A stretch of DNA of 64,000 bases. Origin: Patescibacteria group bacterium. Lineage in GTDB: Bacteria > Patescibacteriota > Microgenomatia > UBA10105 > UBA927. The position numbers and the translations under genes were made by a program. Where the stretch lies: the NCBI GenBank assembly GCA_035510735.1, contig DATKGN010000013.1, positions 596 through 64,595 on the forward strand, read 5' to 3'. The notes beneath the pieces are model-generated. The model was not told the DNA's origin. It saw only the letters and a program-made list of their open reading frames with translations, and did not search any database. The stretch's first letter is position 1; each line of letters opens with the position of its first letter. Shown in pieces: positions 19,885 through 45,439 of the stretch.

Positions 19885-19907
19885 ATTCGCGGCTGCATGT
19901 TTTTACG

Positions 19908-20852
19908 CTATTTTCGTAGCGAGTAATAAGCAATTGTTTTTTGCAACCCCACGTCAATCGCAACCTTCGGACGCCACCCGACAAGATCAGTGACTTTGGA
20001 GATATCGGGCTTTCTCTTCACAGGATCATCTTCAGGCAAATTAGTGTGAATAATCTTCGAAGTCGTTTTGGTCATTTCCTGAATTTTCTTCGCTAAATCG
20101 AAAACAGTACATTCCTCGGGGTTTCCGAGATTAATAATCTCACCGTTTGTACGTTCTGAGAACATAATGGCCATAAGCCCGATAACTAAATCCGAAACAA
20201 AACAAAATGAACGTGTTTGTTTTCCGTCACCGTATATAGTCAACGGTTTTTTTTCAAGAGCTTGATTGATAAAATTAGAAATAACCCGACCGTCGTCTCT
20301 CCGCATATTCGGTCCGTACGTATTGAATATCCGGACAATCCGCCCGTCGACCCCTTTATCCCTGACATACAGTTTTGTCATCATTTCCCCGAATCGTTTG
20401 GACTCGTCATAACACGCCCGGATACCAACCGGGTTTACATTACCCCAATAACTTTCCTTCTGCGGATGCTCAAGGGGATTCCCATACACTTCGCTTGTTG
20501 AGCTGAATAAAAATTTAGCCTGATACCCCCGCGCAAACCGGAGAAGATTGCGGGTGCCCACAGAATTAACCAGAGCTGTTTCTTCGTGGTATTTTTGATA
20601 GTCAGGAACCGATGCAGGTGAAGCAAGATGAAATACATAATCAACCTTCGGCAAAATAGGCATTTCTTTTACGACATCCCAGCGGATAAAGGTAAAATTC
20701 GGATTTCTCTTCAATTGCTCAATATTTTTTTCGGACCCTGTGATGAGGTTGTCAACGCAAATTACTGTATAGTTTTTTTCGATAAGTAATTCACACAAAT
20801 GAGATCCGATAAACCCTGCCCCCCCGGTAACCAATGCTGTCTTATTTTCCAT
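19908..20852 (-). CDS. uxs: UDP-glucuronate decarboxylase (UDP-xylose synthase)
   Basis: It is near-colinear with eukaryotic and bacterial UXS. Motifs include LVTGGAGFIGSHL, VDNLITG, NPNFTFIRWDV, HLASPASVPDY, STSEVYGNP, YWGNVNPVGIRACYDESKR and RIFNTYGPNM. Confidence 0.85.
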   Translation of the reverse strand: MENKTALVTGGAGFIGSHLCELLIEKNYTVICVDNLITGSEKNIEQLKRNPNFTFIRWDVVKEMPILPKVDYVFHLASPASVPDYQKYHEETALVNSVGTRNLLRFARGYQAKFLFSSTSEVYGNPLEHPQKESYWGNVNPVGIRACYDESKRFGEMMTKLYVRDKGVDGRIVRIFNTYGPNMRRDDGRVISNFINQALEKKPLTIYGDGKQTRSFCFVSDLVIGLMAIMFSERTNGEIINLGNPEECTVFDLAKKIQEMTKTTSKIIHTNLPEDDPVKRKPDISKVTDLVGWRPKVAIDVGLQKTIAYYSLRK

Positions 20853-20909
20853 GATTCTATTCTATCAGATTACACCGCATACTGACATAATTTTTTGCGC
20901 GAATTACTA

Positions 20910-22778
20910 TTAAATAGAAAACACTATAACGTCACCGTTTTCAAAAACCTTCCGTAAATACTGTTGGAACAGTTGAACATTGATTGTATATCGAAAATCC
21001 GGGGAGGGTTTTTTTGGTACAACAATATAGCTGACATTGTATTGTTCCATTAATACCCCATCGTCTTTCGGCTGCTCAAACATCAATTTCACAACATGAG
21101 AACGGTCAGGAGTAAGTGTATTCTGAAAAAATCCGTAAAAATTCCTTCTTCCGGCAAGTACCACCGGATCAAAAATGTCGGGATTCTCGACAAATACAGC
21201 ACGCTGTGAAGTTGAATTACGTATCCACTCGATAAATGTATTCTGCGGCGCATCTGTGACAGGATACCCAAAATCATTTTTTATCACCATAAGGTCAATC
21301 ACGCCGGATATCGTTAAAAATAGGATAAATATAACAGCAAACCCACGTAGGACTGTATTTTTCTTTCGCCACATGTAATAAATTAAATATGATGAAATAA
21401 TATTGGCAAATATGACGGTGTAGTTTCCGAATTTTTGATCGATATCAAATACAAACAATACCTTCGCGAGAATCCCGACAATAAACATGACAAGACCCGT
21501 TGCGAAAAATATCCTATATTGCCGGGGCATCACAAACAATCCGATCGGAACACTGAAGAGCAATATACCGTAATTATAAATAATATAGAGCAAAATGGGC
21601 ACATGCGTCGTTGGCAGCGGTATACTACTGCGCACCGCTGGGGTTATATACACCATCGCAGCCCGTACCCACGTCATAAGCGTCGGCACAGAACATATCA
21701 AAGAAGCAATAATATAAACAACGAACTGACGATATTTTCTATTTATTAATAACAGAATTCCGACAGTTCCAAGCAGTATGCCAAACATCACAATATGCCA
21801 AAACGCCAATAGACCCGTAAGTATTCCGACAATCATTAAATCAATCATTGACCATGTCTTCTTTTTGCACTCCTGAAATACAACCAAACCGACGAGGAGG
21901 GCAATCGCAATTCCCAGCGCAAGATGACGTTGATTAACAAAGACATTGAGCGTCCAATAAATAGAAATAGGCGATCCGTCAAACGGCCCCGCAAAAAAAT
22001 ATTTCGGAAGCCGCCAGAGTATTTTTAGCGCATGTATTGAAACTCCGTATTTTTCAAAGAAAAAAATAAATGTCAGCGTGCTGTGTAAGATCGTAAAGAG
22101 AACCGCGAAAAGTCCGACAATTTTAGGCGCTTTCGTTAGCACGCGCGGAATAAAATAGATAACCACAAGAAGGCATGCGTATGTTAAGGCGCTTGGTATA
22201 TTCACGGCCCACACGATCGGTACCCCAAGATGTTCGTACATACCGACCCAAAAATAGAACATAAAATGATACACGTGAACGGCATTTGCTACAAACGGAG
22301 AGAGAAACGGAAGATTATTCCCCCATGAAAAGGATCTGACGATCGAAAGCGCGTGACCGAAATCAAATACTTCATTGCTACCGATTAATAAAACCGACCC
22401 GGTCCCCATTCGAAAAGATTTAAACATTAACCAAAATGAAAATATGAGGGAGAATAACAAAACCGTCATATCAAAACGCTCCTTCAATGCACTCCGTATT
22501 TCCTTTTTTATTCCGACTAAACACGATTTCCAGCGCAACAGAAAGTACAGAAATATCAAGAAGGAATAACTCAGGGACGCTACGAAAATCCGATCCAAAC
22601 TACGCGGCAGAAGACTTGCAAGCACATAAGCTAGTGATACTGAAACTACCGTTCCAATAAGAAAAGCCGCCACAAAACGAAATAGAGCAAACGGCAATGC
22701 TGATTTCCATCGGTTAACAAGAACATACCCGCTTACGATTGACGCAATAGAAAATAATAATAGAATCGCTTGATGCAT
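20910..22778 (-). CDS. polytopic membrane protein (at least 12 TM) with a C-terminal extracytoplasmic domain; candidate GT-C-like transferase, unclassified
   Basis: The product is 622 aa. A hydrophobic N-terminal two-thirds is followed by a roughly 150-aa soluble C-terminal region. No soluble-enzyme motifs are present. Confidence 0.5.
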   Translation of the reverse strand: MHQAILLLFSIASIVSGYVLVNRWKSALPFALFRFVAAFLIGTVVSVSLAYVLASLLPRSLDRIFVASLSYSFLIFLYFLLRWKSCLVGIKKEIRSALKERFDMTVLLFSLIFSFWLMFKSFRMGTGSVLLIGSNEVFDFGHALSIVRSFSWGNNLPFLSPFVANAVHVYHFMFYFWVGMYEHLGVPIVWAVNIPSALTYACLLVVIYFIPRVLTKAPKIVGLFAVLFTILHSTLTFIFFFEKYGVSIHALKILWRLPKYFFAGPFDGSPISIYWTLNVFVNQRHLALGIAIALLVGLVVFQECKKKTWSMIDLMIVGILTGLLAFWHIVMFGILLGTVGILLLINRKYRQFVVYIIASLICSVPTLMTWVRAAMVYITPAVRSSIPLPTTHVPILLYIIYNYGILLFSVPIGLFVMPRQYRIFFATGLVMFIVGILAKVLFVFDIDQKFGNYTVIFANIISSYLIYYMWRKKNTVLRGFAVIFILFLTISGVIDLMVIKNDFGYPVTDAPQNTFIEWIRNSTSQRAVFVENPDIFDPVVLAGRRNFYGFFQNTLTPDRSHVVKLMFEQPKDDGVLMEQYNVSYIVVPKKPSPDFRYTINVQLFQQYLRKVFENGDVIVFSI

Positions 22779-22780
22779 AG

Positions 22781-24721
22781 TTATAATTTTTTTCTCGTGA
22801 TGAAAATGAGTACGCTCACTAACACAATCGAAACGATACTAACAATGCTCAAAAAATTCACCGCGCGCGAAGGAGAATATTGGAGTATTAAATCATCTGA
22901 CACCACAGGAGATAACGAATAACGTATCATACCCAAAGTTGTTTTTTCTGGCTTAACTACCATCTTACCAACACGTAAGATCCATCCGGGGTCATATGCC
23001 ATTTGAAAATTAATCGTATTGATCACCGTTGTCGTTTTAGGTATTACGATCATCCCCTTAGGAGTAACGGAAAATATCACGGATTCGTTTTCCGGTCCGG
23101 CTGTTATCAGGGCGTCATACATTGTATTCTCATAAACAGATAACGACGTAAAACCTTTCAGTCGTCTGAGAGAACTTTTATCAATGGCAGTAATGAGTTC
23201 ATCCCGTAGGTGTTTATCAAAAACGTATTGCGTTTGGAAAATTCGTTTCTCGTAATCCGCAGGCACCACGATATACCGAATGGAGTAACTACCGAGTATT
23301 TGGGTAAAATCCGGCTTTCTGACCATCAATATAACAGCCGATAGTGAACTGTTGGGAAAAAGACTCGTGCCGTCAATCACAGGATGCATCATGTCTGCAT
23401 ACCCGAGCCGCTCCGGTTGCGGCAACCATAACGTGCGGGAAAATCTACTATCATGTTGAATTAGATTCATGAATTGTTGATAATCAGACGGAACCGGCTG
23501 GGGACGAAAATTCCCCGTCAACTGCCCCAAAAATAATTGACGGATAAGAATACCCCAGAACAACAGAAATAAAACAATCACAACATAGTTAAGATGAACT
23601 CGAACGGCCTCCTTTTTTGTTAATCGCGAAACGGTCTCACTAACGTTTGTTAACGTATAAGGAATGAGAATTGCATAAGACAGTGCGACGAATAAATAAA
23701 ATTTCGTCGGATCCCGGTATAAAACAAATCCGGGTATATGGAGAAAACTCCAGGCATAAATGCCACCCAAAGGACCATTTTCTCCCGACGAGAGAAATGC
23801 TCCAATAAGTCCAATAAGTGAAAAGAATAATATCCGCGTTCTATTCTTTATGGTTTGACGGTTTAAAAAAACGAGCGACGCAAAAGCGATAAATGGAAGA
23901 AACAAATACTCGGGTTGTAGAAAATATACTTTTCCAAAAATATTATCCGGCCAATTCGGATGAAGAAGCGATAAGGCATGACTAAAATCTGCGGAACTTA
24001 AAAACTTCACAATGCCGCCACCAGAATATTGGCCATTATCGGTGATGACGCTGCCCGGATACATAACCGATGGCACTATCCAAAAAGCATGAATAACCGC
24101 CGCAACGATTCCCGCAATTCCCAGACGGATATACGTTTCAAATGCTAGAAATAATGATGGTTTAGTAAAAAATGCATAAACAATGACAACTCCAACCGCC
24201 AAAATAGCCATTCGCAAATCGAAAGCCACAAGGAGCGTAATCCACAGCCCGTCTATAAGTGACTGCCGTATCCATTCGGATTTTAGTGGTTTATGATTCC
24301 CCCACCCATCAATCCATTCCATCGCCCGGTTCAAAAATAGCGGCACGGCGGCAAATCCCACTGACACGCCGAATTGCCCGCCTCCGAATAGCATCAAAAG
24401 GTAAGTATTGGATGCATAAATAATTGCGGATACCGCTATCAATAGTTTAGACTGAAAAAACCGACTAGCCAAAACTGAGGCGCAATAGACAGCTATAATG
24501 AAAACGGATATCCAAAGTATTTTGTCTATCGCGACCCATTCCAACCCCGCACTATGAAATAATTTAATGATGCTGGACACCCACGACTCATACCATAAAC
24601 GATTAATGTTACTCTCCCCTAAGTTCTTCGCCCAATTCCAGGCTTGTGGCAACCAAGAGAGTTGATTTAAATTGGAGGGATAATAGAACGGTCCGTCTCC
24701 AGATGCAAAAAAAACGTTCAT
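22781..24721 (-). CDS. polytopic membrane protein with extracytoplasmic loops/domain; candidate GT-C-like transferase, unclassified
   Basis: The product is 646 aa with many TM helices. A large region between TM clusters is followed by a C-terminal TM anchor (FLSIVSIVSIVLVSVLIFI). Confidence 0.5.
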   Translation of the reverse strand: MNVFFASGDGPFYYPSNLNQLSWLPQAWNWAKNLGESNINRLWYESWVSSIIKLFHSAGLEWVAIDKILWISVFIIAVYCASVLASRFFQSKLLIAVSAIIYASNTYLLMLFGGGQFGVSVGFAAVPLFLNRAMEWIDGWGNHKPLKSEWIRQSLIDGLWITLLVAFDLRMAILAVGVVIVYAFFTKPSLFLAFETYIRLGIAGIVAAVIHAFWIVPSVMYPGSVITDNGQYSGGGIVKFLSSADFSHALSLLHPNWPDNIFGKVYFLQPEYLFLPFIAFASLVFLNRQTIKNRTRILFFSLIGLIGAFLSSGENGPLGGIYAWSFLHIPGFVLYRDPTKFYLFVALSYAILIPYTLTNVSETVSRLTKKEAVRVHLNYVVIVLFLLFWGILIRQLFLGQLTGNFRPQPVPSDYQQFMNLIQHDSRFSRTLWLPQPERLGYADMMHPVIDGTSLFPNSSLSAVILMVRKPDFTQILGSYSIRYIVVPADYEKRIFQTQYVFDKHLRDELITAIDKSSLRRLKGFTSLSVYENTMYDALITAGPENESVIFSVTPKGMIVIPKTTTVINTINFQMAYDPGWILRVGKMVVKPEKTTLGMIRYSLSPVVSDDLILQYSPSRAVNFLSIVSIVSIVLVSVLIFITRKKL

Positions 24722-24761
24722 ATAGTTGTGCTATTTAGCATATTTTTCCAATCCTTTTCGT

Positions 24762-25739
24762 TCATGTTTTTTGACCGGCCCTAGATTCATTATAGAGCAA
24801 CAATAACCCAACGATTGTATAGAAAAATGTGATAATTGCGCTCCTACTTGCTACATCTTCCATATGGGTTAACAACCACAATGGGGACAAAAATAACAAT
24901 ACGAGCGCTATGCCAAAAATATGTGACGAAGAGATACGAAATCTTTGAGCAACTATATATGTCATAAGTGCCAAAAAGATAACAATGTCAGATTGCATAA
25001 GAACCGGTTGAATAACATAGACTACTACCATAGTTGCTATCATTATATGAGGAAGTATTGTTCGCATTAATACCATCCGCTCCATAGTATTCCGAAACAG
25101 TATTTCGACAAGATACAGTACGGCCGGGACCAAGAAAACCATGAGATAGGCGAGATAATTAATGTTGAGAAACAAATTTTCTGACTTTGTTAATGCAAAC
25201 TGAAGAATGCTCTTCTTTGATTGAATAACAGTATGCCTGTCAAACGTATACCGTGAGAAAAAATACTGTCTATTCTTAAGAAACCCTATGGCATTATTCG
25301 GTATCCCATTAACCGAATAAATCTCAAATTCATAGATTTTACCCTTGGAGTTTTTTATTACGGGAAATCCAAAAGGATACGGTTCGTTATCGGGGAATCT
25401 GTCTGTAAAATATTTATTAAAACAATACCAATCCTTCGAACCCTTTTCCTTAAGTTGAAAAACAATTATATCATTATTAATTCTGTTAAATGTCGTCACC
25501 GGTACTGCAATTGCGCCGAGGTTGTCCTCATGAGCAATAAATTCCCCATAGATCAGGTCACCTTTATATAGTTCCGGATGTGAAGAGAATTGCATTTGGG
25601 CTATCGTGTGATCATATTGAAGAGTCGTCACACTAACTTCCCGATAATAATATATCGACAAGCCGGTACCTATAAGAATCAATAGGAGAGGAATTACAAA
25701 TATCGTAAACAACTTAATGATAAAATTATTGTTTTTCAT
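24762..25739 (-). CDS. membrane protein: N-terminal TM, roughly 170-aa extracytoplasmic domain, then 4-5 C-terminal TM helices; hypothetical
   Basis: The topology is read from hydrophobicity. It has a 4-nt overlap with the upstream gene. Confidence 0.45.
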   Translation of the reverse strand: MKNNNFIIKLFTIFVIPLLLILIGTGLSIYYYREVSVTTLQYDHTIAQMQFSSHPELYKGDLIYGEFIAHEDNLGAIAVPVTTFNRINNDIIVFQLKEKGSKDWYCFNKYFTDRFPDNEPYPFGFPVIKNSKGKIYEFEIYSVNGIPNNAIGFLKNRQYFFSRYTFDRHTVIQSKKSILQFALTKSENLFLNINYLAYLMVFLVPAVLYLVEILFRNTMERMVLMRTILPHIMIATMVVVYVIQPVLMQSDIVIFLALMTYIVAQRFRISSSHIFGIALVLLFLSPLWLLTHMEDVASRSAIITFFYTIVGLLLLYNESRAGQKT

Positions 25740-28006
25740 ATGGCATTACGTCGGAATATGACAAATCTTACTATTCCCATAATCACCAAATATCCTGCAA
25801 TACCTATCCAAAATACAACACTCACTTCGTTAATAAATTGGACGTATTTTTGAACATGAAAGTAAATACGCAGATGAATTTGTTTTTGACCGTTAACCGT
25901 CTCTAAGGTCTTAGGATAAGCCTGCACAATCTTTGGAAGTTCAAACGACCACCCGTTCCCAAAACGGTAAATCATAAAGTGAGTCGCGTTATTAACTGTG
26001 TATTCATGGCCTTGAGAATCAACGGCAAATAGATCCCATGAACCGTCAAACGGCTCTAAGAAAGCCAAATTTGTTCTACCCTCTTTAAAGTGAATGGTAA
26101 TGTCGTATTGGTAGGGATAAGATTTTTGAATTGCTGGAACTGCGATGTCAGCGGGGATTGATTGTGTATTGTTGGTCAAAAATATTTTATCGGTCGTGAA
26201 TCGTTTATTTATCGAATACAGCGAATATCGGGTACCGAAATCCTTAATTTTATCTCCGAGAATTAATTTATTATACGCTGGTTTTTGGGCATCGATCGTG
26301 CCTTCAAAGTTAAGGTGATCATACGCCGCTTTCGGTAATGAATATCGTGAAACGATTATATATTTTACGCTCATGCGTTGTAATATCTCTCCGATTTTTT
26401 CGTATTGGCCGTTATGAAGATATCCGAGCATCTGAAAATTTAAGTCCGGATCAGCTGTTGTCGCGAAACTCTGGAATCCTGCGAAATCTGAAATACCAGC
26501 CAAAAATTGCATCGGTGAGGCGCCGTAATAATAATGTCCCGGATTCTCTTTATCCTCGATAACCACATAACTGGCAAAATTGAGAGGAAGCCAGGCAAAC
26601 CGTGACGGTTCATGCATCGAACGGACATACGATATGAGGTTCATAAAATCTGGGTTGAAATTGCCGGAAATATTTTGATACGTGTCATCTGTGAGTGTCG
26701 GCGGAAAAAAATAATTCCTCGCAGACCAAATTGTTGTAAAAAATAATAATACTATTAACAAGTTCATGATGTGTTTCTTTTTAATCGTTTTGACAAGGAC
26801 AACGAGTGACATACAGAGCGCAAATGCGAATTGAAAGCTTACGGCTATGCCGAATTTGTCATACATATTTCGGAACATTGCAAACAACGGAATATGGTTG
26901 TTGAAAAAAGTAAATATCGCAACGTTCCAATCTCCGAAGTTGGGTGTGACGAGAGCGAAACTGAACAATAATCCGGCGACAGACAGGACATACGAAGGGA
27001 TGTATTTCCTAATTTTTCGTATACGAATGCCCGCAAGTAGAATTACGGCAAAATAGAGAACTCCGTACGACTGGGCAAAATCCATATTGTTTCGCTCATC
27101 CCACGAGGAGCGTATATAGGCTGATAGTTGGTTAATGGGGTCATTGAGATGCGACAATGATTGAATAAGATCAACGTTATTCGCTTTGATGACGGAAGAA
27201 GATACCGACGCGATCACGGAAGAACCTCCGGTATGGGCGACAAGCGGGTAAACTTGATGAAATAGCCAATAAAAATTTAACCCGGCTACCAAAACGAAAA
27301 AGATCAACGTCATTTTAACGAAAGAGGAGAAGTAGTTCTTAATGAGTATGATGAAAATTGGTATAGAGGCAAACGCCATGGCGCCAAACCAGGGCAACGT
27401 CAAAAAAGTGGAACTAAATGCCGAATAAACTACTGCCGAAAGAACGACATGATAGACTTTATTCTCCTTGACTGCCCTGATAAATAAATAAAAGACAGCG
27501 GGAAAAATAGAAATCATATAGATTGCTAACAGTTGCGCGGAAAAAACCGTTTTTATGACAAACAAAGAGAGAATGTAAAATAATGAAGAAACAAACCGTG
27601 CGGAAAATACACCTGCGCCCTTCTCATTTTCCTGTGTCCACAACCCGGTAAAAAGATAAAAGAACAAAAACCCGCCCGCGAGGTTTGCTCCGTACATGAG
27701 AAGCTGCGTATTAATATAGGGAGCCACATGTTTTAATCCCGAAATAATCAACAGTACCGGGATAAAGAAGCTCACTGATTCATAACCACCGTTAGTCCCT
27801 AATGTATTATTCGATACGATGTTACCGACAAAATTCCGCAGCATTTCTCCTGGGAAAATATAGTAGAGGCGTGTATCATCTCCACCGACATCATAAAATC
27901 CATGTAATCTAATAAAAGGGACAAAGACTAAACAAATTGAAGTTATAATGACGAGTTTATTTCTGTTAAGGAAATGAATCAGAGTAGTAATAAAATTTTT
28001 TGGCAT
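25736..28006 (-). CDS. large polytopic membrane protein (N-terminal half about 12 TM, C-terminal roughly 350-aa extracytoplasmic domain, terminal TM anchor); candidate GT-C-like transferase
   Basis: The product is 756 aa. An early loop has HGFYDVGGDDTRLYY (an acidic motif). A C-terminal anchor VSVVFWIGIAGYLVIMGIVRFVIF is present. Confidence 0.5.
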   Translation of the reverse strand: MPKNFITTLIHFLNRNKLVIITSICLVFVPFIRLHGFYDVGGDDTRLYYIFPGEMLRNFVGNIVSNNTLGTNGGYESVSFFIPVLLIISGLKHVAPYINTQLLMYGANLAGGFLFFYLFTGLWTQENEKGAGVFSARFVSSLFYILSLFVIKTVFSAQLLAIYMISIFPAVFYLFIRAVKENKVYHVVLSAVVYSAFSSTFLTLPWFGAMAFASIPIFIILIKNYFSSFVKMTLIFFVLVAGLNFYWLFHQVYPLVAHTGGSSVIASVSSSVIKANNVDLIQSLSHLNDPINQLSAYIRSSWDERNNMDFAQSYGVLYFAVILLAGIRIRKIRKYIPSYVLSVAGLLFSFALVTPNFGDWNVAIFTFFNNHIPLFAMFRNMYDKFGIAVSFQFAFALCMSLVVLVKTIKKKHIMNLLIVLLFFTTIWSARNYFFPPTLTDDTYQNISGNFNPDFMNLISYVRSMHEPSRFAWLPLNFASYVVIEDKENPGHYYYGASPMQFLAGISDFAGFQSFATTADPDLNFQMLGYLHNGQYEKIGEILQRMSVKYIIVSRYSLPKAAYDHLNFEGTIDAQKPAYNKLILGDKIKDFGTRYSLYSINKRFTTDKIFLTNNTQSIPADIAVPAIQKSYPYQYDITIHFKEGRTNLAFLEPFDGSWDLFAVDSQGHEYTVNNATHFMIYRFGNGWSFELPKIVQAYPKTLETVNGQKQIHLRIYFHVQKYVQFINEVSVVFWIGIAGYLVIMGIVRFVIFRRNAI

Positions 28007-28723: not shown

Positions 28724-28781
28724 AATAATCTGCTAAATTGCTGGATACAATACCGAATATACCAGAGATTATAACTTATTT

Positions 28782-30409: not shown

Positions 30410-30508
30410 AATTCTCTACGCCTACAAAATACGATTTAATATCAAGCGTAATTATATATGAGGCCACTATGATAAGATATGTAGCATTATACAAATACGG
30501 AAGGAACA
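30410..30508. promoter_or_regulatory. divergent intergenic region (99 nt) presumed to carry promoters for the minus-strand methyltransferase/GT2 genes and the lone plus-strand GT gene
   Basis: It is the only sizeable divergent gap in the cluster. It is AT-rich, with TATA-like hexamers (gtaattatatat, cattatac) and a GGAAGG Shine-Dalgarno 7 nt before the ATG at 30509. Confidence 0.3.
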
Positions 30509-36991: not shown

Positions 36992-36996
36992 AAGCT

Positions 36997-37977
36997 CTAA
37001 ATAGTTTTTGACAATAACACCCTTCCCTCTTTGTTTGTGATAAATGATCCAATGATTACATTTGTCGTCATGATATTAAAGGGCAGCTCGTATAATCCAG
37101 CTGGATCACGGTAACGCAGTGACTTATAGAAACCGACTATGATTGACGGCATGATAGTATAACAATACATAAGCCAAAGGAATAGTTTAATAAACTCACT
37201 TCTTTTCGACCAATCTATCCACGTCCAATACCGTTTATTCGGTTGATTAAAATACATGGTTTCCAGATTTCTCTTCCTCTTACGAACAAGATTGGATAAC
37301 GTCGTTAAAAAAGGATGATGAATTCCGATATCGGGAACATATGCATATGAAGTCCTGCCGTTTTCCACCATAATGACCATCGTATCCAATTCCATATATT
37401 TTTTCATTTCGGCAACAGCCGTTGTTAGTAATTCTTTCCGTCTGTAAAGACAGAAACTCGCTGGCAGAATTTTCCCCTTCCGATATTCGGTTATCCAATA
37501 CTCTTTGTATTTTTTTGTAATACAGCTGGACGTCGAGGGCGTAAGAAAACAAAAAAGCGGATCGCGCTGGATGGGGTCAAACGTAATGTATCGGTTAAGC
37601 GGCGCATCGCCGGGCAAACTCACGAATCTGGTCCATGAACCGACGATTTCTGTATCTTTTTCAAGCGGACTAACCATTTTTTCAAACCAATGGTCACCCA
37701 CGAGACCCATATCACAGTCCAGGATCATAAAATATTTTCCCGTCGACTTCATAAGCGCTATCTTTTTCCCGTACTCTGCTTCTCTGAGTGGATTACGAAG
37801 AATAGTTACGGGGAAACGTTTCGCTATTTTGACCGTATCGTCCGTTGAACCGCCGTCAACGATAAACACTTCCAATTTTCCCTGGTATTTCTGATGAAAT
37901 ATGGAGTTCAAACAATGCTCAATATGGTCATGCTCATTGAGCGTAGGTATCGCTATGGATATTGAAGGAAACACCAT
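36997..37977 (-). CDS. glycosyltransferase family 2 (GT-A fold)
   Basis: Motifs include ISIAIPTLNEHDHIEHCLNSIFHQKY, VFIVDGGSTDDT and a DxD-like ILDCDM. Confidence 0.7.
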   Translation of the reverse strand: MVFPSISIAIPTLNEHDHIEHCLNSIFHQKYQGKLEVFIVDGGSTDDTVKIAKRFPVTILRNPLREAEYGKKIALMKSTGKYFMILDCDMGLVGDHWFEKMVSPLEKDTEIVGSWTRFVSLPGDAPLNRYITFDPIQRDPLFCFLTPSTSSCITKKYKEYWITEYRKGKILPASFCLYRRKELLTTAVAEMKKYMELDTMVIMVENGRTSYAYVPDIGIHHPFLTTLSNLVRKRKRNLETMYFNQPNKRYWTWIDWSKRSEFIKLFLWLMYCYTIMPSIIVGFYKSLRYRDPAGLYELPFNIMTTNVIIGSFITNKEGRVLLSKTI

Positions 37978-37981
37978 ATGT

Positions 37982-38974
37982 CTAGCGTACCATATGGTCC
38001 GTAAGGAGTCCGTTCAAAAAACCCCAACCGTATGCCATATGTGTCAATATGACGCCAAGAGAGGCAAGTAGCGATCCAAATACATTAGTTTTTCCCGAAA
38101 CGCTGCCGTACGCCATGGAATAAAAAATTAGGAATACTAGTCCAAAAATCAACCGGGCTGGCAGAGAGATGATGCTCATCATTACAAGTAGCCAGAACCC
38201 AATCGTCAATAACAAGGGTAAACAATAAAATAAACTTCGCGAAGTCTCCGGATATCGCTTAAAAAAATACCCACGGTGGACACCAACATTTGAAATTTGA
38301 CGGAGATATTGCGAGAATAACGGCCGGCGGTGATGATACACAACTACATCGGGATCGTAGAGCATTTTACCGTACTTCAGAAGTTTCAAACATACGAACG
38401 TGTCTTCTCCGCCATAAAACGTACTTTCCCATCCGCCGACACTTTTAAGGACATTTGTTTTAATAAATAAATTATATGCCGGCCAATCGGTCATATACTG
38501 ACGTTTTTGATGAGCATTTGTAAACCGGAATTTCAATTTTCCGCTTGTAAGGTCTGACTCATAAACAATTCCGCTTATTTGAGCCAAATATGGATCTTCA
38601 GGGGGAGTCACTCCGGGGCCACCCAGAGCAACGATAACGGGATATGTTCGAAAAAGTTCAATAGCCTGGGTTAGCCAAGTCGGATCTGGATACGCATCGT
38701 CATCTATATAGGCACATATCTCTCCCTTTGCATGGCGAAGAGCGATATCCCGTTTTTCTGCGGGACCGGTGGTATGACCTGCTTTCGTCACAATCAGCCG
38801 GATATTTTTGACTTTTGGTAACTGTATTTTTTTATCACAAATAACTAGTATTTCATAATTTGGATAGGTTAAAAGATCAAATTTCCTGAGATCCTCACTG
38901 AACCGTGCTGATACGATATACGCAGGGATGACAATGGAAACGAGCGGTTTTTTTGATAATTTCGGTATTTTCAT
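37982..38974 (-). CDS. glycosyltransferase family 2 with C-terminal TM helices
   Basis: Motifs include VSIVIPAYIVSARFSEDLRKFDLLTYPNYEILVICD and a DxD-like YIDDDAY. A hydrophobic C-terminal segment of about 80 aa with 2-3 TM follows. Confidence 0.7.
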   Translation of the reverse strand: MKIPKLSKKPLVSIVIPAYIVSARFSEDLRKFDLLTYPNYEILVICDKKIQLPKVKNIRLIVTKAGHTTGPAEKRDIALRHAKGEICAYIDDDAYPDPTWLTQAIELFRTYPVIVALGGPGVTPPEDPYLAQISGIVYESDLTSGKLKFRFTNAHQKRQYMTDWPAYNLFIKTNVLKSVGGWESTFYGGEDTFVCLKLLKYGKMLYDPDVVVYHHRRPLFSQYLRQISNVGVHRGYFFKRYPETSRSLFYCLPLLLTIGFWLLVMMSIISLPARLIFGLVFLIFYSMAYGSVSGKTNVFGSLLASLGVILTHMAYGWGFLNGLLTDHMVR

Positions 38975-40662
38975 AATGACTTCGTCCTGTTGTTGCGGAT
39001 ATACTCACGGATTTGGGGGCTTATGTCAAGAAGCAACCGGTCGTTGGATTTGTAATAGAACGCAACAATCTGATTTTCGGATAACTTAGGATTCTGTTTA
39101 AATAAATTCAAGAGATCATTTTTATCCCAGTAATACCCAAATCCTTTCCCTTTTACTTCACGATATCCCTGATCCCGTATTTCCCACAAAAAGTCGTTCT
39201 GAAAAAACTCTCTTGGAACAACCCCCGTCGGGTAATACCAGATCATCAACGTATACCCCGGTCCTTGTTCGAGAGGGACTTTCACATTCGTCAATCCGTA
39301 ATATCCATTGCTATCGCCTGTGATATACACGATCGGCTTATTGGGAAGCGTCGGATACAGGTAGGTAAATTGCTTAAGCAATTGTACTCTTTCCGCCGAA
39401 ACGCTCGCCAGTTGAGCAACGTTGCGCCGTATGAGACGAACGTTAACAAATATATAGAAACACAAAATAATTCCCATTGAAAAAAGAGCATATCGATAAA
39501 TCTTAGAATATTTCTTCAGCCTATCTGCAATGCCGGTAAGTACCGCGCTAAGCAACAATGCCCCTCCCGCGCTGCCAAGATAAAAATATCGAGAATCCAG
39601 ATACGCGCCACCTCTGCGAAGAATAATATAGGGTAAGAAACTAAGACCAATGAATATCAATGCGTACAAAATAATTTTACCAACCCTCTTAACCATGTAC
39701 GCAACGACCACAGACACAACTATAACGATAAGAGAAAAATACAAGGAAAGTACATCAGCGGTCATATTATCCCTGATCGATGAAGCCATAAAATTCCCAT
39801 TAATAAATGGATACATCGCTGACTGGAACAATGTTGCAAATTTGTAGAGGTAGACATCCGGAATGAATATTTGGGAAATTGATACAACAGGATAAAATAA
39901 CGCGTTGAACAGTATCTTTTCCTTCATGAACGGAGTATTTGCCTCGAAAGCTGCAGAGTTGGCCGGTATCCGTAGATAGTTAACTAGAACCACAGATAAA
40001 CAGAACACTAAATAGACCCCAATGGGCCAAAATATTTTAAAGATTTTCATGATGGTCACCTTATTTTTAGATAAATTAATAAAGAGTAAGGGAAGTATGA
40101 CAAACACAATCACTCCACTCTCTTTAAATAGGTAGGCTACAACCGCAGAAACCTGGGACAGAATTAAATAATGCCGCTTATTCGATTCCATAAACTGCAG
40201 CAGAAGAAGAATCGATACGAAAACAAACGTTGCCGAGGGCAGCGTCGTAGTATTGGCAGCAAACCACGTGACTGCCTGAATCGGTGTATACAGGCATATA
40301 AATATAATTGATGCGAGATATGACAACATAGTATTTTTACTTAGTTTTTGGACTACGAAATAGAGCAACAACGCATTGAAAAAATTAACAACGATGGAAA
40401 ATAAGGCGAAAGGAAAACCCTGATACGTAAAATACCGATAAAATATGAAATTAAAGATCGATCCGAGTATCCTCCCAGATCCGGCTAGAATACTTATGAT
40501 AGAAAACTTGCCGAGAAACCTTGTGCTTCCGTATGCAATAACATCTCCAACCCCAACCCATTCGTCCTGTTGATAAAATAAATGGAAAAGCCTGCTATAA
40601 ATAAACCCAGAAAGAAATATCAAAAGTAGTATTATAATTATCCACTTAAATGATTTCATCAT
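38971..40662 (-). CDS. GT-C-like polytopic membrane protein, family A (paralog 3 of 3)
   Basis: The product is 563 aa. It has the first-loop motif FYQQDEW and the C-terminal signature LPNKPIVYITGDSNGYYGLTNVKVPLEQGPGYTLMIWYYPTGVVP. Confidence 0.6.
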   Translation of the reverse strand: MMKSFKWIIIILLLIFLSGFIYSRLFHLFYQQDEWVGVGDVIAYGSTRFLGKFSIISILAGSGRILGSIFNFIFYRYFTYQGFPFALFSIVVNFFNALLLYFVVQKLSKNTMLSYLASIIFICLYTPIQAVTWFAANTTTLPSATFVFVSILLLLQFMESNKRHYLILSQVSAVVAYLFKESGVIVFVILPLLFINLSKNKVTIMKIFKIFWPIGVYLVFCLSVVLVNYLRIPANSAAFEANTPFMKEKILFNALFYPVVSISQIFIPDVYLYKFATLFQSAMYPFINGNFMASSIRDNMTADVLSLYFSLIVIVVSVVVAYMVKRVGKIILYALIFIGLSFLPYIILRRGGAYLDSRYFYLGSAGGALLLSAVLTGIADRLKKYSKIYRYALFSMGIILCFYIFVNVRLIRRNVAQLASVSAERVQLLKQFTYLYPTLPNKPIVYITGDSNGYYGLTNVKVPLEQGPGYTLMIWYYPTGVVPREFFQNDFLWEIRDQGYREVKGKGFGYYWDKNDLLNLFKQNPKLSENQIVAFYYKSNDRLLLDISPQIREYIRNNRTKSL

Positions 40663-41774
40663 AAAAATTTCGACTCTAACATTCTATAAATGTATGAATA
40701 ATCGGAAAATGTTTTCGCGTTCTTTCGCATTACCTTCAAAACTTTCATATTTTTATTCAATAGTAATATCTTCTTCGCAATGTCATTAGGATCCGGTTTA
40801 ACGATAAACCCGACATTTTTTTGACGAATATCGTCTGCAGTCGAACACGCATTCGTCATAATAACAGGTATTCCGCAGGCAAGATACTCCCTTGTTTTCA
40901 TTGAATCACCCCACCATGTCCATGGCGATGCGCCTTTATAAATCGACAGTCCGACAAGGCTTCTGGATATCACCTTCATGACGTCCTTATGGAGCATCGC
41001 ACCAGCAAAGTGGACGTACTTATCCAACCCCAATGCTTTAACATCAGCGCGTAATTCATTTTCGTCCTTTCCGGATCCGATGATCGCCAGATTCATTTTA
41101 CTATTCTTCTTAGTTACAAATGACATCGCCCGGATTGTTGCGTCAAAATCAATATTTTCCTTCGATAAAGTAGAAACCAATATAACAGAATTATTATCCT
41201 TTCGTGTATTGAGATTGTGTAGTCTCATGAGAGGTATATTGGGAACAAAATAATTTCGGTTCTCACTTACTCCCTGACTTTTTCTTAGTTTCACCATACG
41301 AGAGGACACATTCCATACCTCATCGCAATATCGAAGGCAGGTTCGATCGATTGCATGATAAATGGAATTTGTTATAGGATTCTGAAATCTCTGCAGGGCG
41401 TAGTCAGCAGTATAAAAAATAACTATTTTCGTTAACCCTAACCGTCGCAGCAGTATTCCGTATAATGCGTTAAGCGGATCGACTCCAATAAAATAGTCCG
41501 GTATAGTTCGTGTATTTCTTAGAGAACGATAGGTAATAATAAAGTCCTGAAATACCCGAATTACTAATGGCAATCTGCTAAATCCGAGGATTTTTACATG
41601 TTGTGATTTGCCGTCAAAATATTCAATTCTTGAACGGGATCCGAAATAGAGCGGATGTTTTATAAACATAAACAGCCGCTTATGCTGTTCCATAAACGAA
41701 GCCAGAATCTCTCCCGTACCGTGACCGGGCTTACCATCGGAAGAATATTGGATATGGCTTGCAATGACTAACAT
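40659..41774 (-). CDS. glycosyltransferase, GT-B fold (divergent GT4-like), paralog of the plus-strand 30509..31657 product
   Basis: The C-terminal domain reads LAIIGSGKDENELRADVKALGLDKYVHFAGAM...ACGIPVIMTNACSTADDIRQKNVGFIV. Confidence 0.55.
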   Translation of the reverse strand: MLVIASHIQYSSDGKPGHGTGEILASFMEQHKRLFMFIKHPLYFGSRSRIEYFDGKSQHVKILGFSRLPLVIRVFQDFIITYRSLRNTRTIPDYFIGVDPLNALYGILLRRLGLTKIVIFYTADYALQRFQNPITNSIYHAIDRTCLRYCDEVWNVSSRMVKLRKSQGVSENRNYFVPNIPLMRLHNLNTRKDNNSVILVSTLSKENIDFDATIRAMSFVTKKNSKMNLAIIGSGKDENELRADVKALGLDKYVHFAGAMLHKDVMKVISRSLVGLSIYKGASPWTWWGDSMKTREYLACGIPVIMTNACSTADDIRQKNVGFIVKPDPNDIAKKILLLNKNMKVLKVMRKNAKTFSDYSYIYRMLESKFL

Positions 41775-41775
41775 A

Positions 41776-42567
41776 TTATTTTGTCAGTGAGATATGAAAC
41801 CGAGTGGCGAAACGCTCATCTGGGTAAATATCGATAACGTAACCGATAAGATTCGTCACGGGAAAAATAATCAGTGAAGAAACTGTATAAAGGGGCTTTA
41901 CGACAATATTTGCTTCGACAATTCTACGGATGAGCCATTGATTAATGATCGAAGCAACGGTAGTCCCCCCGGTATTCACATATATGTCAATTTTATTAAA
42001 TCGCAGAGTCTTTTTTATATGATAAAAAAAACCAAAAGAATACCTAAAGTAATCCATTGTATGATCCGGTTCACCTCCGTGCATTCGATAAAGATAGGGT
42101 ACGGATATCACTGCTTTACCACCATTTTTTAAAACTCTCTTAGCTTCTGAAAAATATTGAACGGGGTCGGCTACATGTTCAAGCACCTCATAGCTTATAT
42201 GATAATCGAACGTGCTTGATTTAAACGGAAGCTGCAACGCGTCACATGTTTTATCCAAAGTAATTCTTTTTTGCCGGTCAATCAAGATTCCTAAGTAGGG
42301 AAAACGGGTCAGGAACGTATCCAGCTTACCAAATTCACCGTCCCACGTCGTGTGATCAGTGGCTATATATTTAACAATTTTCTTATATTTAGCGATCGCT
42401 TCAAGTTTTCGTTTCCCGTTTCCGGCGCCGACTTCAAGAACAACACCGTGTATTCCCTTCAATATATGATCGTTCGCTTGCCTCATTTTCAGGTCATGCA
42501 GCCAATGCGGATAAAACGGCGTCAGGAGTAGCGCGGAAAATATACTCATATTAGGTATAGAGCTCAT
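41776..42567 (-). CDS. class I SAM-dependent methyltransferase
   Basis: Motif I is VLEVGAGNGKRKLE and the downstream segment is YHISYEVLEHVADP...LKNGGKAVISVP. An alternative start 18 nt downstream (MSIFSALL) would remove the overlap with the upstream gene. Confidence 0.7.
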   Translation of the reverse strand: MSSIPNMSIFSALLLTPFYPHWLHDLKMRQANDHILKGIHGVVLEVGAGNGKRKLEAIAKYKKIVKYIATDHTTWDGEFGKLDTFLTRFPYLGILIDRQKRITLDKTCDALQLPFKSSTFDYHISYEVLEHVADPVQYFSEAKRVLKNGGKAVISVPYLYRMHGGEPDHTMDYFRYSFGFFYHIKKTLRFNKIDIYVNTGGTTVASIINQWLIRRIVEANIVVKPLYTVSSLIIFPVTNLIGYVIDIYPDERFATRFHISLTK

Positions 42568-43366
42568 CTAATACTTGAGGAATGCGGTCTTTGAAGGAAA
42601 TACCCAAATTCTTCCTCATCTCTGACGTATTAAGGAGCAAATTATCTTCTGAACCTATAGCCGTATTGAATACGAGGGATGAGGTTCGATGTGATTTAAA
42701 AGCTTTTGCTAATTCGAGAATCGAATACGATTTCGCGGAAGCGATATTAAAAATGTTGCTTTTATCATATGTAATACACCGGATTATCGCTTCACATGCA
42801 TCATGTACTTCCAAAAAATCTCTTTTTTGTTTACCCGAGCCGTTAACCGTAATGGTTCCGGATTCCGTTTGCTGTTTAAACTCATAAAAAACTCCCTTAT
42901 TTGAGTCTTTCCCGTATATGTTTGGAAAACGTAAGATGATCGACTGAATATTACATGTGCCTCGGTAATACTCCACGACCGATTCTGCAATTTTCTTAGA
43001 CAATCCGTACGCGCTTATTGGCCGTAATACATCATCTTCTTTAGACAATCTGTTTGTACGGTTACCATAAACTGCACCTGATGATGAAAAGATAACTTTG
43101 TTTAACGAATATTGCGTGCCTATTGCAAGCATTGTCTGAAGGGTTTGTACATTAACGGAAAAAGCTTCTTTTCTATCATTCGTAAATTTGCCGATAAGGA
43201 AGATTAATACACTGGGCTTTTGTACTTTAAAGAATGATGTTACGTCTTTTTCACGTAACGCATTCCCGGTAAACGAAACGTAGGCGATATTCCGATCGTC
43301 AAGCAAACGACAAAGATGAGAACCTATAAATCCTTTCGACCCAGCCACTCCAACTATTGCATTCAT
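42551..43366 (-). CDS. NAD(P)-dependent sugar epimerase/reductase (short SDR; dTDP-4-dehydrorhamnose reductase-like size)
   Basis: Motifs include VGVAGSKGFIGSHL (GxxGxxG) and YGLSKKIAE (YxxxK). At 271 aa it is too short for a 4,6-dehydratase. Its position just downstream of a PseB/CapD-like dehydratase suggests a 4-keto reductase or epimerase partner. Confidence 0.6.
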   Translation of the reverse strand: MNAIVGVAGSKGFIGSHLCRLLDDRNIAYVSFTGNALREKDVTSFFKVQKPSVLIFLIGKFTNDRKEAFSVNVQTLQTMLAIGTQYSLNKVIFSSSGAVYGNRTNRLSKEDDVLRPISAYGLSKKIAESVVEYYRGTCNIQSIILRFPNIYGKDSNKGVFYEFKQQTESGTITVNGSGKQKRDFLEVHDACEAIIRCITYDKSNIFNIASAKSYSILELAKAFKSHRTSSLVFNTAIGSEDNLLLNTSEMRKNLGISFKDRIPQVLDELYT

Positions 43367-43372
43367 AGATGA

Positions 43373-44404
43373 TCACTGAAAAAGCCATGATTCTTTTTTC
43401 AATAACTTTTCAAAGTCGTAATTATTAAGTCGTGTCGTGGTTTTTGATGAAAATTCATCTCCAACAAATTTTTTGTTTTTCCCATAAAAACGCAACAATT
43501 CTTTTTTGTTTAATTGCGGAAGAAGAACATAACATTTTTCTGAAAAAACGTAGGCACTATCCGACTCATTTTTGGAAATTAAAACTTCGTGTTTCTTTTC
43601 TCCCGGACGACCGCCAATAACTTTTATCCGGCTGCCTTTATTGCCGAACAGTTTGATCATCACGGAAGCGATCGTCTCTATGGTTGCCGCCGGCATGTTC
43701 ATAACAAACGTTTCTCCGCCGACTGATTGCTCTATCGAAGTAAAAATCAATCCTATCGCTTCTTTCGTATTCATAAGAAATCTGGTCATCGTTGGATCCG
43801 TAATAGTGATTTCATTGTGCAGTTGAAGTTGTTTTTTAAATAGCGGAATAACACTTCCGTTTGTCCCCAAAACATTACCACCCCGTATACAAATAAATTT
43901 TGTTTTATGACTATTTATATGTGAATAATTAACGTTTGCATTAATCATGAGTTTTTCACCACACGCTTTCGTTATCCCGTAAATATTGAGAGGTTCGACG
44001 GCTTTATCCGTAGATACGTCAATCACTTTTTCAATTTTATTCTCTATTGCAGTTTCAATGACGTTTTGCGCACCATAGATATTGGTTAAAACGGCTTCCC
44101 ATGGGTTGTTTTCACATACCGGGACATGTTTGAGAGCAGCAAGGTGAAAGAGCACGTGAGACCCTAACATAGATAACCGGAGGATATTTTTATCGCGGAC
44201 ATCACCGATGATAAATTTGATTTTTGGACTATTTTGAAACTCTTCCTTCATCTCCACCTGTTTATGTTCCCCTCTTGAGTATATCCGTACCTCTTTCACT
44301 TTTGGGTAACGGTCAATGATTTGCCTGACAAGTTCATGACCCCAGGATCCGGTTCCACCGGTAACAAATACCACTTTTCCATCGAGCGAATATGTTTGTT
44401 TCAT
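43373..44404 (-). CDS. UDP-N-acetylglucosamine 4,6-dehydratase family (PseB/FlaA1/CapD-like polysaccharide biosynthesis protein)
   Basis: The N-terminus GKVVFVTGGTGSWGHELVRQII matches the PseB/CapD KxxxTGGTGSFG signature. The overall length of 343 aa also fits. Confidence 0.75.
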   Translation of the reverse strand: MKQTYSLDGKVVFVTGGTGSWGHELVRQIIDRYPKVKEVRIYSRGEHKQVEMKEEFQNSPKIKFIIGDVRDKNILRLSMLGSHVLFHLAALKHVPVCENNPWEAVLTNIYGAQNVIETAIENKIEKVIDVSTDKAVEPLNIYGITKACGEKLMINANVNYSHINSHKTKFICIRGGNVLGTNGSVIPLFKKQLQLHNEITITDPTMTRFLMNTKEAIGLIFTSIEQSVGGETFVMNMPAATIETIASVMIKLFGNKGSRIKVIGGRPGEKKHEVLISKNESDSAYVFSEKCYVLLPQLNKKELLRFYGKNKKFVGDEFSSKTTTRLNNYDFEKLLKKESWLFQ

Positions 44405-44405
44405 G

Positions 44406-45425
44406 TTAAATATATGTAATAAATTCCCTCAAAAATATCGCTAAGCCGATATTACGCCATATTATATGCCAAAACACGCGATCATTCACACTGCGAATTG
44501 TCGTCTGTATATATTTTCTTTTCCGTAACGTACTGCTCATATTCCTGATATTCCATAAAATAGCTTTCACTATACTCCATGATGTTTTATATCGGCTGGT
44601 CACTAACAATGCAAAAGTCACACCTACACAAAAAAATAAATGCACCGGTAATATGAGCATCAAATGATATAAACCGACATTTTTGCAATATGAATTAATT
44701 CTGTTTTTAAATGAATGATACTGAACAAAAGCATTGTTCATGCCGCTACTCGTTGCCCCCATTTTATGATAGACAACCGATTTATATGCATAGACAATTC
44801 GGTGCCCAGAGAGCCAAACGCGGTGGCACATATCGGTTTCTTCAAAATAAGCAAAATAATCGGGATCAAGAATCCACCCGTCAACTTCAATCTTCTGTAA
44901 CACGTCCTTCTTAAATATCATACAGGCGCCCTTGGCGGTATACAGATCTATTTGTTTATTGTATTTCGGACTATCTTTTTGACGGAATCCGTAGTGATAG
45001 AGAAAACCGGTCGGTGTTAAGAATGCCCCCACCGAATCAAGACGTGTGTGGTCATCCATAAGGAGCAGCTTGCCCTGAGCGCCGCCAATCGAAGGATCGC
45101 TTTCAAGTACGTTGACGAACTCCTCAAGAAATGTCGGGGTTGTTTCCGTATCGTTATTAAGAAACAAAATATAGTCACCCTTTGCTTGTTTATATCCGAT
45201 GTTATTTGCATGGGAAAACCCGAGGTTCTTTTCATTAACGATGATTTTTGTTTTCGGGTAATGCGCTTTGGTCCACGCAACGGACCTGTCAGTCGACGCA
45301 TTGTCAACGAGAATCCATTGTGTGTTTTTATATGTCTGCCTGGCAAGCGTCGGGAAACAACCTTTGAGCCAATTAAGACCGTTCCAATTGACGATAATGA
45401 TAGAAATGAGCTTCTGTTTCCTCAT
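44406..45425 (-). CDS. glycosyltransferase family 2 with a C-terminal membrane segment
   Basis: Motifs include ISIIIVNWNGLNWLKGCFPTLARQTY, ILVDNASTDRS, YILFLNNDT and a DxD-like FEETDMCHR. A C-terminal hydrophobic region follows. Confidence 0.8.
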   Translation of the reverse strand: MRKQKLISIIIVNWNGLNWLKGCFPTLARQTYKNTQWILVDNASTDRSVAWTKAHYPKTKIIVNEKNLGFSHANNIGYKQAKGDYILFLNNDTETTPTFLEEFVNVLESDPSIGGAQGKLLLMDDHTRLDSVGAFLTPTGFLYHYGFRQKDSPKYNKQIDLYTAKGACMIFKKDVLQKIEVDGWILDPDYFAYFEETDMCHRVWLSGHRIVYAYKSVVYHKMGATSSGMNNAFVQYHSFKNRINSYCKNVGLYHLMLILPVHLFFCVGVTFALLVTSRYKTSWSIVKAILWNIRNMSSTLRKRKYIQTTIRSVNDRVFWHIIWRNIGLAIFLREFITYI

Positions 45426-45439
45426 ACCGGTATTTTATG

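Follow-up and report, generated by a model that had tools for sequence, protein, structure and literature searches.

A mild AT-rich stretch in an envelope-glycan supercluster of a Patescibacteria bacterium is probably the variable middle of the locus rather than an inserted foreign element

We analyzed a stretch of 64,000 nucleotides (hereafter the window, in whose coordinates all positions are given) from a Patescibacteria group bacterium (assembly GCA_035510735.1, contig DATKGN010000013.1, positions 596 to 64,595 of the forward strand). It comes from a metagenome-assembled genome (MAG) of a Microgenomates-like lineage of the candidate phyla radiation (CPR) and covers part of a supercluster for cell-envelope glycan synthesis that spans at least 67 kb. 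A preliminary description, made by eye, had marked an AT-rich island of about 25 kb between 19.9 and 45.4 kb and had read it as the signature of a horizontally acquired or fast-evolving glycan-variation cassette. Our results showed that this AT-rich stretch is real and significant but mild and patchy. In our judgment it is probably the variable middle of a large glycan cluster and not an inserted foreign element. The reading as a glycan-variation cassette held for positions 28052-44404, a replaceable slot, and failed for the genes at the two ends of the zone, which are conserved in place in related loci. The features of the zone are listed below, with putative functions taken from domain and sequence matches (GT, glycosyltransferase, followed by its family; SDR, short-chain dehydrogenase/reductase).

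19908..20852, minus strand: UXS-like UDP-glucuronate decarboxylase, 42.5% G+C, matching human UXS1 structures at 7.5e-95
20910..28006, minus strand: membrane block, four proteins of 622, 646, 325 and 756 amino acids, 35.6-41.7% G+C (UXS and block together, 19908-28006, 39.9%)
28052-44404: replaceable slot, 15 genes, 16.4 kb, between the anchors GT2 44406 and the 756-amino-acid GT-C protein at 25736
28052..36238, mixed strand: slot segment A, 36.2% G+C, the lowest; methyltransferase 28052, GT2 28782, methyltransferase 29786, a GT4, an SDR and two PMT-like proteins (domain matches)
30509-31657, plus strand: inverted GT4, segment A
31687: CDP-paratose/tyvelose-2-epimerase-like SDR, segment A
32757 and 34499: paralogous PMT-like membrane proteins, segment A
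36248..38974, minus strand: slot segment B, 41.3% G+C, in composition not distinguishable from the flanks; a methyltransferase and two GT2 (domain matches)
38971..44404, minus strand: slot segment C, 38.8% G+C; third PMT-like protein 38971, a GT4, a methyltransferase, short SDR reductase/epimerase 42551 and dehydratase 43373
43373, minus strand: PseB/FnlA/CapE-like UDP-GlcNAc 4,6-dehydratase, matching FlaA1 (1e-69) and FnlA (5e-68) among Protein Data Bank (PDB) sequences
44406..45425, minus strand: GT2, right anchor of the slot

Altogether, the slot contains four methyltransferases, three GT2, two GT4, three PMT-like proteins, the PseB/FnlA-like dehydratase, an SDR reductase and the 2-epimerase-like SDR. 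All genes named in the preliminary description (UXS, the four-gene membrane block, four methyltransferases, the plus-strand GT4, the PMT-like triplet and the PseB/FnlA-like dehydratase) could be recovered. Members of the triplet (32757, 34499 and 38971) share 27-31% mutual identity, and other old paralogues within the slot include three of the methyltransferases as well as GT2 pairs and GT4 pairs at 24-32% identity. The slot genes appear to belong to the CPR gene pool, because every named organism among the many homologues of the 31687 epimerase (66-78% identity) is a member of Patescibacteria.

Related loci, designated here by L-numbers, were collected by scanning public metagenomes with a profile of the 756-amino-acid protein family, which yielded 74 loci. 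A scan of reference genomes with GalE, the first gene to the left of the zone with an assigned function, gave four useful CPR loci, the other eight being Anaerolineae-type GalE without synteny. The closest relative found, L029, belongs to a different species (62% identity for the 756-amino-acid orthologue and 77% for GalE). Read in the orientation of GalE, its gene order is GT2-232, flippase, GT2-268, GT4-370, PMT_2-443, GT2-296, GT2-339, GT8 plus a methyltransferase and then the membrane block (756/325/646/622), and it continues with an extra Methyltransf_21 gene, UXS (79%), a small ORF (open reading frame), GalE, and the GT4s and acetyltransferase of the left flank. In this relative the slot consists of the GT8 and methyltransferase genes alone (1.9 kb), which are unrelated to those of the window, and all 15 slot genes of the window are absent. 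Wider collinearity around the anchors could be observed in L029, L017, L030 and L055.

Slot gene content was different in every relative examined. It comprised methyltransferases, a GT4 and an inverted block with aminotransferases in L030; a dTDP-sugar isomerase, an aminotransferase and others in L032; methyltransferases, DUF6492, an aminotransferase and an inverted GT2 plus GT4 in L109; and homologues of 43373 and/or 37982 in L033 and L055. Single genes of the window's slot were found again in several loci. L031 holds together homologues of 28782 (60%), 30509 (52%) and 34499 (51%), a homologue of 37982 (56-57%) lies inside the slot of L033, L036 and L055, and homologues of 43373 (61-65%) are present in L036, L055 and L072. 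Inverted GT4 genes resembling 30509 (43-52%) occur in the slot of L030, L031, L043, L056 and L109; because inverted homologues recur there in five relatives, this gene appears to be an old resident of the slot. Methyltransferases resembling 28052 also recur at or beside the slot in relatives. In the 19 loci with both anchors visible, slot length ranged from 71 bp to 8.4 kb, measured only within the fetched 10-kb flanks, so the slot of the window need not be the longest. The G+C content of the slot was at or under that of its locus in most relatives. A ranking of slot genes against anchor genes by identity across loci says little about lateral transfer, since the anchor changes far more quickly than enzymes usually do.

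Among the relatives of GalE, the one that has both a name and related genes beside it comes from a Candidatus Levybacteria MAG, and closer GalE relatives are 58-75% identical. Three of the loci, L017, L018 and L021 (CAYSEV010000002.1, CAYQEJ010000001.1 and CAZVTJ010000016.1), bear the title 'uncultured Gammaproteobacteria bacterium'. The left flank of the window is matched in gene order by L017 and L021 (GalE 72-75%), and L018 carries rearranged right-flank genes (GalE 58%). These labels look wrong or generic.

The two ends of the AT-rich zone behaved differently from the slot. Although UXS is the first gene of the island as originally drawn, it is part of the conserved core, with syntenic copies of 68-79% identity in L017, L029, L030, L034, L055 and others. 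Likewise, GT2 44406, though the last gene of that island, is a core gene: its counterpart in L029 has 73% identity and lies directly upstream of the two-gene slot, and its homologues (36-72%) flank the slot in 19 loci. Orthologues of the membrane block in L029 are 47-62% identical with the order kept, and L030 and L017 are similar. Most neighboring core genes are 58-80% identical to those of L029. UXS and the membrane block are inherited in place, and the block is fast-evolving, so that this part of the preliminary description applied to the block.

None of the four membrane proteins of the block matched a Pfam family above threshold, and the 646-amino-acid protein gave a weak match to the AftD GT-C family (E = 0.0045). 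For the 756-amino-acid protein (25736-28006), no Pfam match was found even at E ≤ 1, and a search of PDB sequences with the family profile returned nothing. Its AlphaFold2 model (predicted local distance difference test score 88.6, predicted template modeling score 0.88) was searched with Foldseek, and the best match was AftD (E = 4e-7, probability 1.0), followed by STT3, PglB and AftA. The model thus predicts an AftD-like GT-C fold, with a multi-pass membrane part and an extracytoplasmic domain. A GGDD motif (G41-G42-D43-D44), at least 90% conserved among 40 family members, follows the first helix (residues 3-34) of the model, which fits the acidic motif of the first extracytoplasmic loop of GT-C enzymes. 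The family is small, with 56 matches among 5.8 billion clusters.

Two further observations were made around this block. A second, smaller variable site lies between UXS and the gene for the 622-amino-acid protein, where the window has a 57-nucleotide spacer (20853-20909); at the same site L029 has an extra Methyltransf_21 gene (16973-17971) and L030 a Methyltransf_21 gene plus a GT2 (17156-18872). In addition, the 756-amino-acid gene, single here, is doubled (in tandem or nearby) in L017, L033, L034, L040, L041, L049, L059, L063, L065 and L074, often with a small methyltransferase gene in between.

We then come to composition. The G+C content was 44.0% at positions 1-19899, 38.6% at 19900-45430 and 42.3% at 45431-64000, with a window mean of 41.4%. 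Unsupervised likelihood segmentation placed change points at 20625 and 44742 (log-likelihood ratios 43 and 38), both within about 0.7 kb of the edges set by eye at 19.9 and 45.4 kb, and none of 20,000 shuffles of gene order gave a contiguous 21-gene run that was equally AT-rich (P < 5e-5). Thus, the trough lies where it had been placed, with a significant step near both edges. Its depth had been overestimated: the true step is 4-5 points of G+C and not about 15, because the 60-nucleotide samples used at that time had chanced on extremes (windows of this size have a standard deviation of 7 points here; re-measured, the samples gave 0.45-0.55 outside the trough and 0.22-0.45 inside). Nor is the trough uniform, as segment B matches the flanks, which had 43.7% (left) and 42.2% (right) in the segment comparison. 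Where the cluster continues to the right of the window, it also contains genes of 38-39% G+C. The dip could be seen at all three codon positions. The preliminary description had allowed that such a composition might be typical of membrane-protein genes, and this was rejected as the full cause: the dip affects soluble as well as membrane proteins, the lowest G+C at third codon positions was found in soluble methyltransferases and glycosyltransferases of the 28-36 kb region, and the membrane-richer right flank has a higher G+C.

For each gene, we also calculated a synonymous residual, that is, its G+C minus the value expected from its amino-acid sequence under flank codon usage. The residual was not significant for UXS and the membrane block (-0.008) or for segment B (-0.006), and it was 0.000 for GT2 44406. 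Segment C had a residual of -0.010 (P = 0.05), its deficit being mostly amino-acid driven, and segment A, with -0.027 (P = 1.3e-5, about 2.4 standard deviations of core genes), was the sole significant segment. The deficit of the membrane block is almost wholly due to its amino-acid make-up. The dinucleotide distance (delta*) of segment A from flank pieces was 50; in the null distribution the mean was 35 and the 95th percentile 44. Only 28052-36238 therefore departs from the local composition, at synonymous sites and, mildly, in dinucleotides. The signature of horizontal origin proposed for the whole island was thus reduced to a codon-level deficit in this segment, and even there homologues of 28052 and 30509 recur in or beside the slot of relatives. 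Segment A is the strongest candidate to have arrived later, from a relative of lower G+C; alternatively, it may have drifted in place.

The trough was repeated in relatives with backgrounds anywhere between about 26% and 53% G+C. Compared with the core genes of the locus in which they occur, homologues of the membrane block are lower by 2.9 points in 31 of 36 loci (Wilcoxon 7e-7), and for slot-type genes the deficit is 1.5 points in 26 of 33 (Wilcoxon 4e-4). Per-gene G+C of the 16 genes shared by the window and L029 was strongly correlated (r = 0.90), and protein identity was positively correlated with G+C (rho 0.57-0.69). Because the lower G+C recurs across loci, correlates with that of L029 and is mostly amino-acid driven, most of the trough is an old trait of these gene families and not the mark of recent foreign DNA.

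Signals of mobility were also sought. No integrase, recombinase or transposase domain was found by Pfam scans in the 55 ORFs of the window, which agrees with the earlier remark that neither edge carries an integrase or transposase. No transfer RNA (tRNA) or transfer-messenger RNA gene was found anywhere in the window, no repeat pair brackets 19.9/45.4 kb or 28.0/44.4 kb, and promoter- or terminator-like sites at the edges were no commoner than in shuffled sequence. The whole block is not present or absent as a unit; only 28052-44404 differs among relatives. Over the junctions at 19.9, 28.0, 44.4 and 45.4 kb, the window was 100% identical to a 55-kb contig that had been assembled separately (SRR8695230) and to contigs of several further samples.

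The zone is embedded in a much larger cluster. Nearly all ORFs of the window are on the minus strand and could be assigned to glycan biosynthesis by Pfam and NCBIfam scans; the exceptions to glycan content are GlyRS, RecO and two small ORFs, all at the left end. More than 10 multi-pass membrane proteins are encoded, which are PMT_2, PTPS-related, YfhO-like or unannotated. The conserved parts on both sides have the following features.

4990..19666, minus strand: left conserved part, about 44% G+C (Pfam and NCBIfam matches)
4990-5628, minus strand: putative initiating polyprenyl-phosphate sugar-phosphate transferase, left part
18686-19666, minus strand: GalE, 382 bits against an NCBIfam cut-off of 262
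19663..19884, minus strand: small hydrophobic ORF of 73 amino acids between UXS and GalE, grand average of hydropathy 0.85, no Pfam match
45440..63727, minus strand: right conserved part, 42.2% G+C (measured over 44406-63727)
49487, minus strand: Wzx-like flippase, right part
50748, minus strand: small GT2 like AglJ and other polyprenyl-phosphate-sugar synthases, right part

In addition to the initiating transferase and GalE, the left part encodes a mannose-1-phosphate guanylyltransferase, GT4 and GT2 enzymes, a PMT_2 GT-C, an acetyltransferase and a protein of 1002 amino acids with 18 transmembrane helices. In L017, L021 and L029 its genes keep their order and have for the most part 54-77% identity, with the exception of the 1002-amino-acid protein (33-51%) and, in single relatives, 9831 (43%), 11012 and 18051 (both 47%). 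The 73-amino-acid ORF is found at the same position in L017, L021, L029 and L030 (42-61% identity), and in many of the metagenome loci, L034, L037 and L055 among them (47-60%), it adjoins or lies near a gene resembling UXS. The right part contains a GT2, a PMT_2 GT-C, a GT4, another GT2, the flippase, GT2 50748 and further GT4, GT2 and GT-C-like membrane proteins, one right-flank gene being annotated as MptA_B_family. From 50748 to 45440 it is collinear in L029 at 61-80% identity, the flippase having only 36%, and the order flippase, GT2, GT4, GT2, GT2 is repeated in L064, L067, L070, L077 and L090.

Several additional observations concern these flanks. The 1002-amino-acid protein (12445-15453) belongs to no Pfam family, and its helices are predicted; it is syntenic yet 33-51% identical, and its gene has a G+C of 43.9%. 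The product of 18051-18647 is a 198-amino-acid protein that consists of the GT4 N-terminal domain (Glyco_transf_4) alone, directly upstream of a full-length GT4 (16900-18054). Because this pair is conserved in L017, L021, L029 and L030, with 47-58% identity for the short protein, it looks like a genuine stand-alone half-glycosyltransferase and not a pseudogene. At the left end, four out of six independent GlyRS-carrying contigs (L004-L007) stop about 0.5-0.6 kb beyond the window and the other two end inside it, which suggests a repeat or a strain-variable point just outside. At the right end, the cluster runs on for at least 8 kb past position 64000 (L107, 1-10004). This extension encodes one PMT-family protein, two membrane proteins that lack annotation and two members of the YfhO family, one on the opposite strand, so that the supercluster reaches at least 67 kb in full and contains well over a dozen GT-C-type genes.

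How the AT-rich zone arose may be explained in several ways. The idea that the whole 25 kb is a genomic island gained recently, in one event, from a foreign donor of lower G+C would account for a G+C under that of both flanks with change points near the edges, and for the absence of the 15 slot genes from L029. We consider it very unlikely, since UXS, the membrane block and GT2 44406 are syntenic in relatives, per-gene G+C follows that of L029 (r = 0.90), neither the membrane block nor segment B has a synonymous anomaly, the trough is present in 31 of 36 related loci of very different backgrounds, the composition inside the stretch is a mosaic, and no integrase, tRNA or flanking repeat was found in the window. 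Horizontal gain of the island as a unit, one of the two options originally offered, is not supported by these data, and for 19.9-28.0 kb and 44.4-45.4 kb synteny contradicts it. Still more improbable, to the point of being negligible, is an assembly or binning artefact in which contigs of two organisms were joined into a chimera: independent assemblies are 100% identical over all four junctions, and relatives share the gene order across 19.9 kb and the anchors on both sides of the slot, against which stand only the origin of the sequence from a MAG and several short contigs from other samples that end near 44.3-45.4 kb and 30-32 kb.

A rival of greater weight, though in our view still rather unlikely, dispenses with transfer altogether and explains the zone by gene-specific composition (proteins rich in Phe, Ile, Lys, Asn and Tyr), AT drift of weakly expressed or weakly constrained genes, and duplication and loss in place. 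Amino-acid content indeed predicts most of the deficit in segment C and the membrane block, the corresponding families of other genomes are likewise shifted toward AT, identity and G+C are correlated (rho 0.57-0.69), old duplicates lie within the slot (the triplet, three methyltransferases, and GT2 and GT4 pairs at 24-32%), and the inverted 30509-like GT4 and the 28052-like methyltransferase recur at or beside the site in relatives. However, segment A lies 2.7 points under the amino-acid prediction (about 2.4 standard deviations, P = 1.3e-5) and its dinucleotide signature is shifted, and the fast-evolving flank gene 12445 has a normal G+C. Moreover, hardly any of the 15 genes are present in the three closest relatives, so several independent losses would be needed.

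Several points weigh against our own reading of the zone as the variable middle of the cluster. Within-species polymorphism was not seen: all same-species contigs, from more than six samples and found by exact-protein look-ups for GalE, PMT_2 46269 and membrane protein 34499, were 100% identical and represent one population. The comparison across strains and bins suggested in the preliminary description thus gave variation between species, and only in 28052-44404. Slot homologues have 50-65% identity in relatives with 60-70% identity in their core genes, as would be expected of vertical descent accompanied by losses, and the patchy distribution of slot genes is compatible both with lateral exchange and with repeated differential loss. 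The Wilcoxon P values for the trough in relatives (7e-7 and 4e-4) are optimistic, as the loci share phylogeny. The protein encoded at 12445-15453 is only 33-51% identical yet its gene has 43.9% G+C, and fast evolution alone is insufficient to explain AT-richness. GlyRS and RecO, the sole housekeeping genes in the window, have 46-48% G+C, and given these values the whole cluster may lie under the genome mean. Finally, the glycan product and all enzyme activities are deduced from homology alone. Diversifying selection, like the direction and timing of any transfer, is a matter that we infer.

On the reading that the zone is the variable middle of the cluster, the following scheme could be proposed. 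A polyprenyl-phosphate sugar-phosphate transferase would start a lipid-linked glycan, cytoplasmic GT2 and GT4 enzymes would lengthen it, and the Wzx-like flippase would export it. Outside the membrane, the many GT-C glycosyltransferases would elaborate the glycan with polyprenyl-phosphate sugars supplied by the AglJ-like GT2. The initiating transferase, the flippase and the GT-C enzymes point to a product that is probably exposed at the surface. Slot genes might determine the fine structure of the glycan by attaching or capping its side chains, with putative enzymes for a 6-deoxy-N-acetylhexosamine-type sugar and for a 2-epimerized sugar. The content of the slot would turn over between species by gene gain, loss and duplication, and exchange would most likely take place among members of the CPR gene pool, with the conserved anchors as sites of homologous recombination and no need for an integrase.

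O-antigen and capsule loci have conserved flanks, a variable center and no mobility genes, and their exchange is thought to proceed by recombination in the flanks. The best reading of the architecture found here is that it would represent this standard pattern of surface-polysaccharide loci, in a CPR lineage and in an unusually large, GT-C-rich cluster. As in the center of such loci (for example, rfb of Salmonella enterica), conserved flanks are at a fixed locus and the genes for glycosyltransferases and sugar modification differ between relatives; the G+C is likewise lower and mosaic (36.2, 41.3 and 38.8% in segments A, B and C, compared with 43.7 and 42.2% in the flanks), and mobility genes are missing. 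The O-antigen clusters of Salmonella have been described as mosaics of low-GC segments in which glycosyltransferase, wzx and wzy genes are lowest (PMC3715488). On the other hand, the G+C drop is 4-8 points here but about 15-20 points in Salmonella, the gene for the Wzx-like flippase is among the conserved ones, and part of the AT-rich zone, the membrane block, is itself conserved. In addition, the cluster is far larger (at least 67 kb), is dominated by GT-C enzymes and has no Wzy polymerase identified among them, and its variation is between species of an uncultured CPR lineage and not between strains of one species.

The arabinan and mannan GT-C enzymes of mycobacteria and corynebacteria (AftD, AftA, Emb and MptA/B) offer a second comparison. 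The model of the 756-amino-acid protein has the AftD/AftA fold, its neighbor has a weak AftD match, and the cluster contains both an MptA_B_family gene and a GT2 resembling polyprenyl-phosphate-sugar synthases, which fits extracytoplasmic extension from lipid-linked donors. However, identity over the fold alignment is 9-12%, the proteins are much shorter than AftD and have no AcpM partner, and the host is a CPR bacterium without a known mycolata-type wall. With classical genomic islands, the zone shares a contiguous block of lower G+C that is partly absent from the closest relative; it differs in that integrase or transposase, tRNA and direct repeats are lacking in the window, its outer thirds are syntenic, and the shift is modest and largely amino-acid driven. 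A search of the literature on CPR glycan clusters or GT-C enzymes found nothing relevant.

Thus, the island seen by eye is the ordinary low-GC variable core of a polysaccharide locus and is not to be labeled a mobile element or a recent insertion of foreign DNA. Our data describe a recurrent locus plan of Microgenomates-like bacteria, with conserved flanks, an AftD-like GT-C block outside curated families, and a slot that holds anything from nothing to 15 genes. The slot would provide a concrete site for surface-glycan diversity in cell-attached organisms that have so far been beyond the reach of serological typing. As a broader and tentative hypothesis, which we put forward with some doubt, Microgenomates-type CPR bacteria might share a conserved, GT-C-rich supercluster for envelope glycans, built around this uncurated AftD-like family, with a hypervariable, serotype-like slot that exchanges cassettes of methyltransferases, glycosyltransferases and deoxy-sugar enzymes among CPR lineages. 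If this is true, slot exchange would vary the surface with which these episymbiotic bacteria presumably meet host cells and phages.

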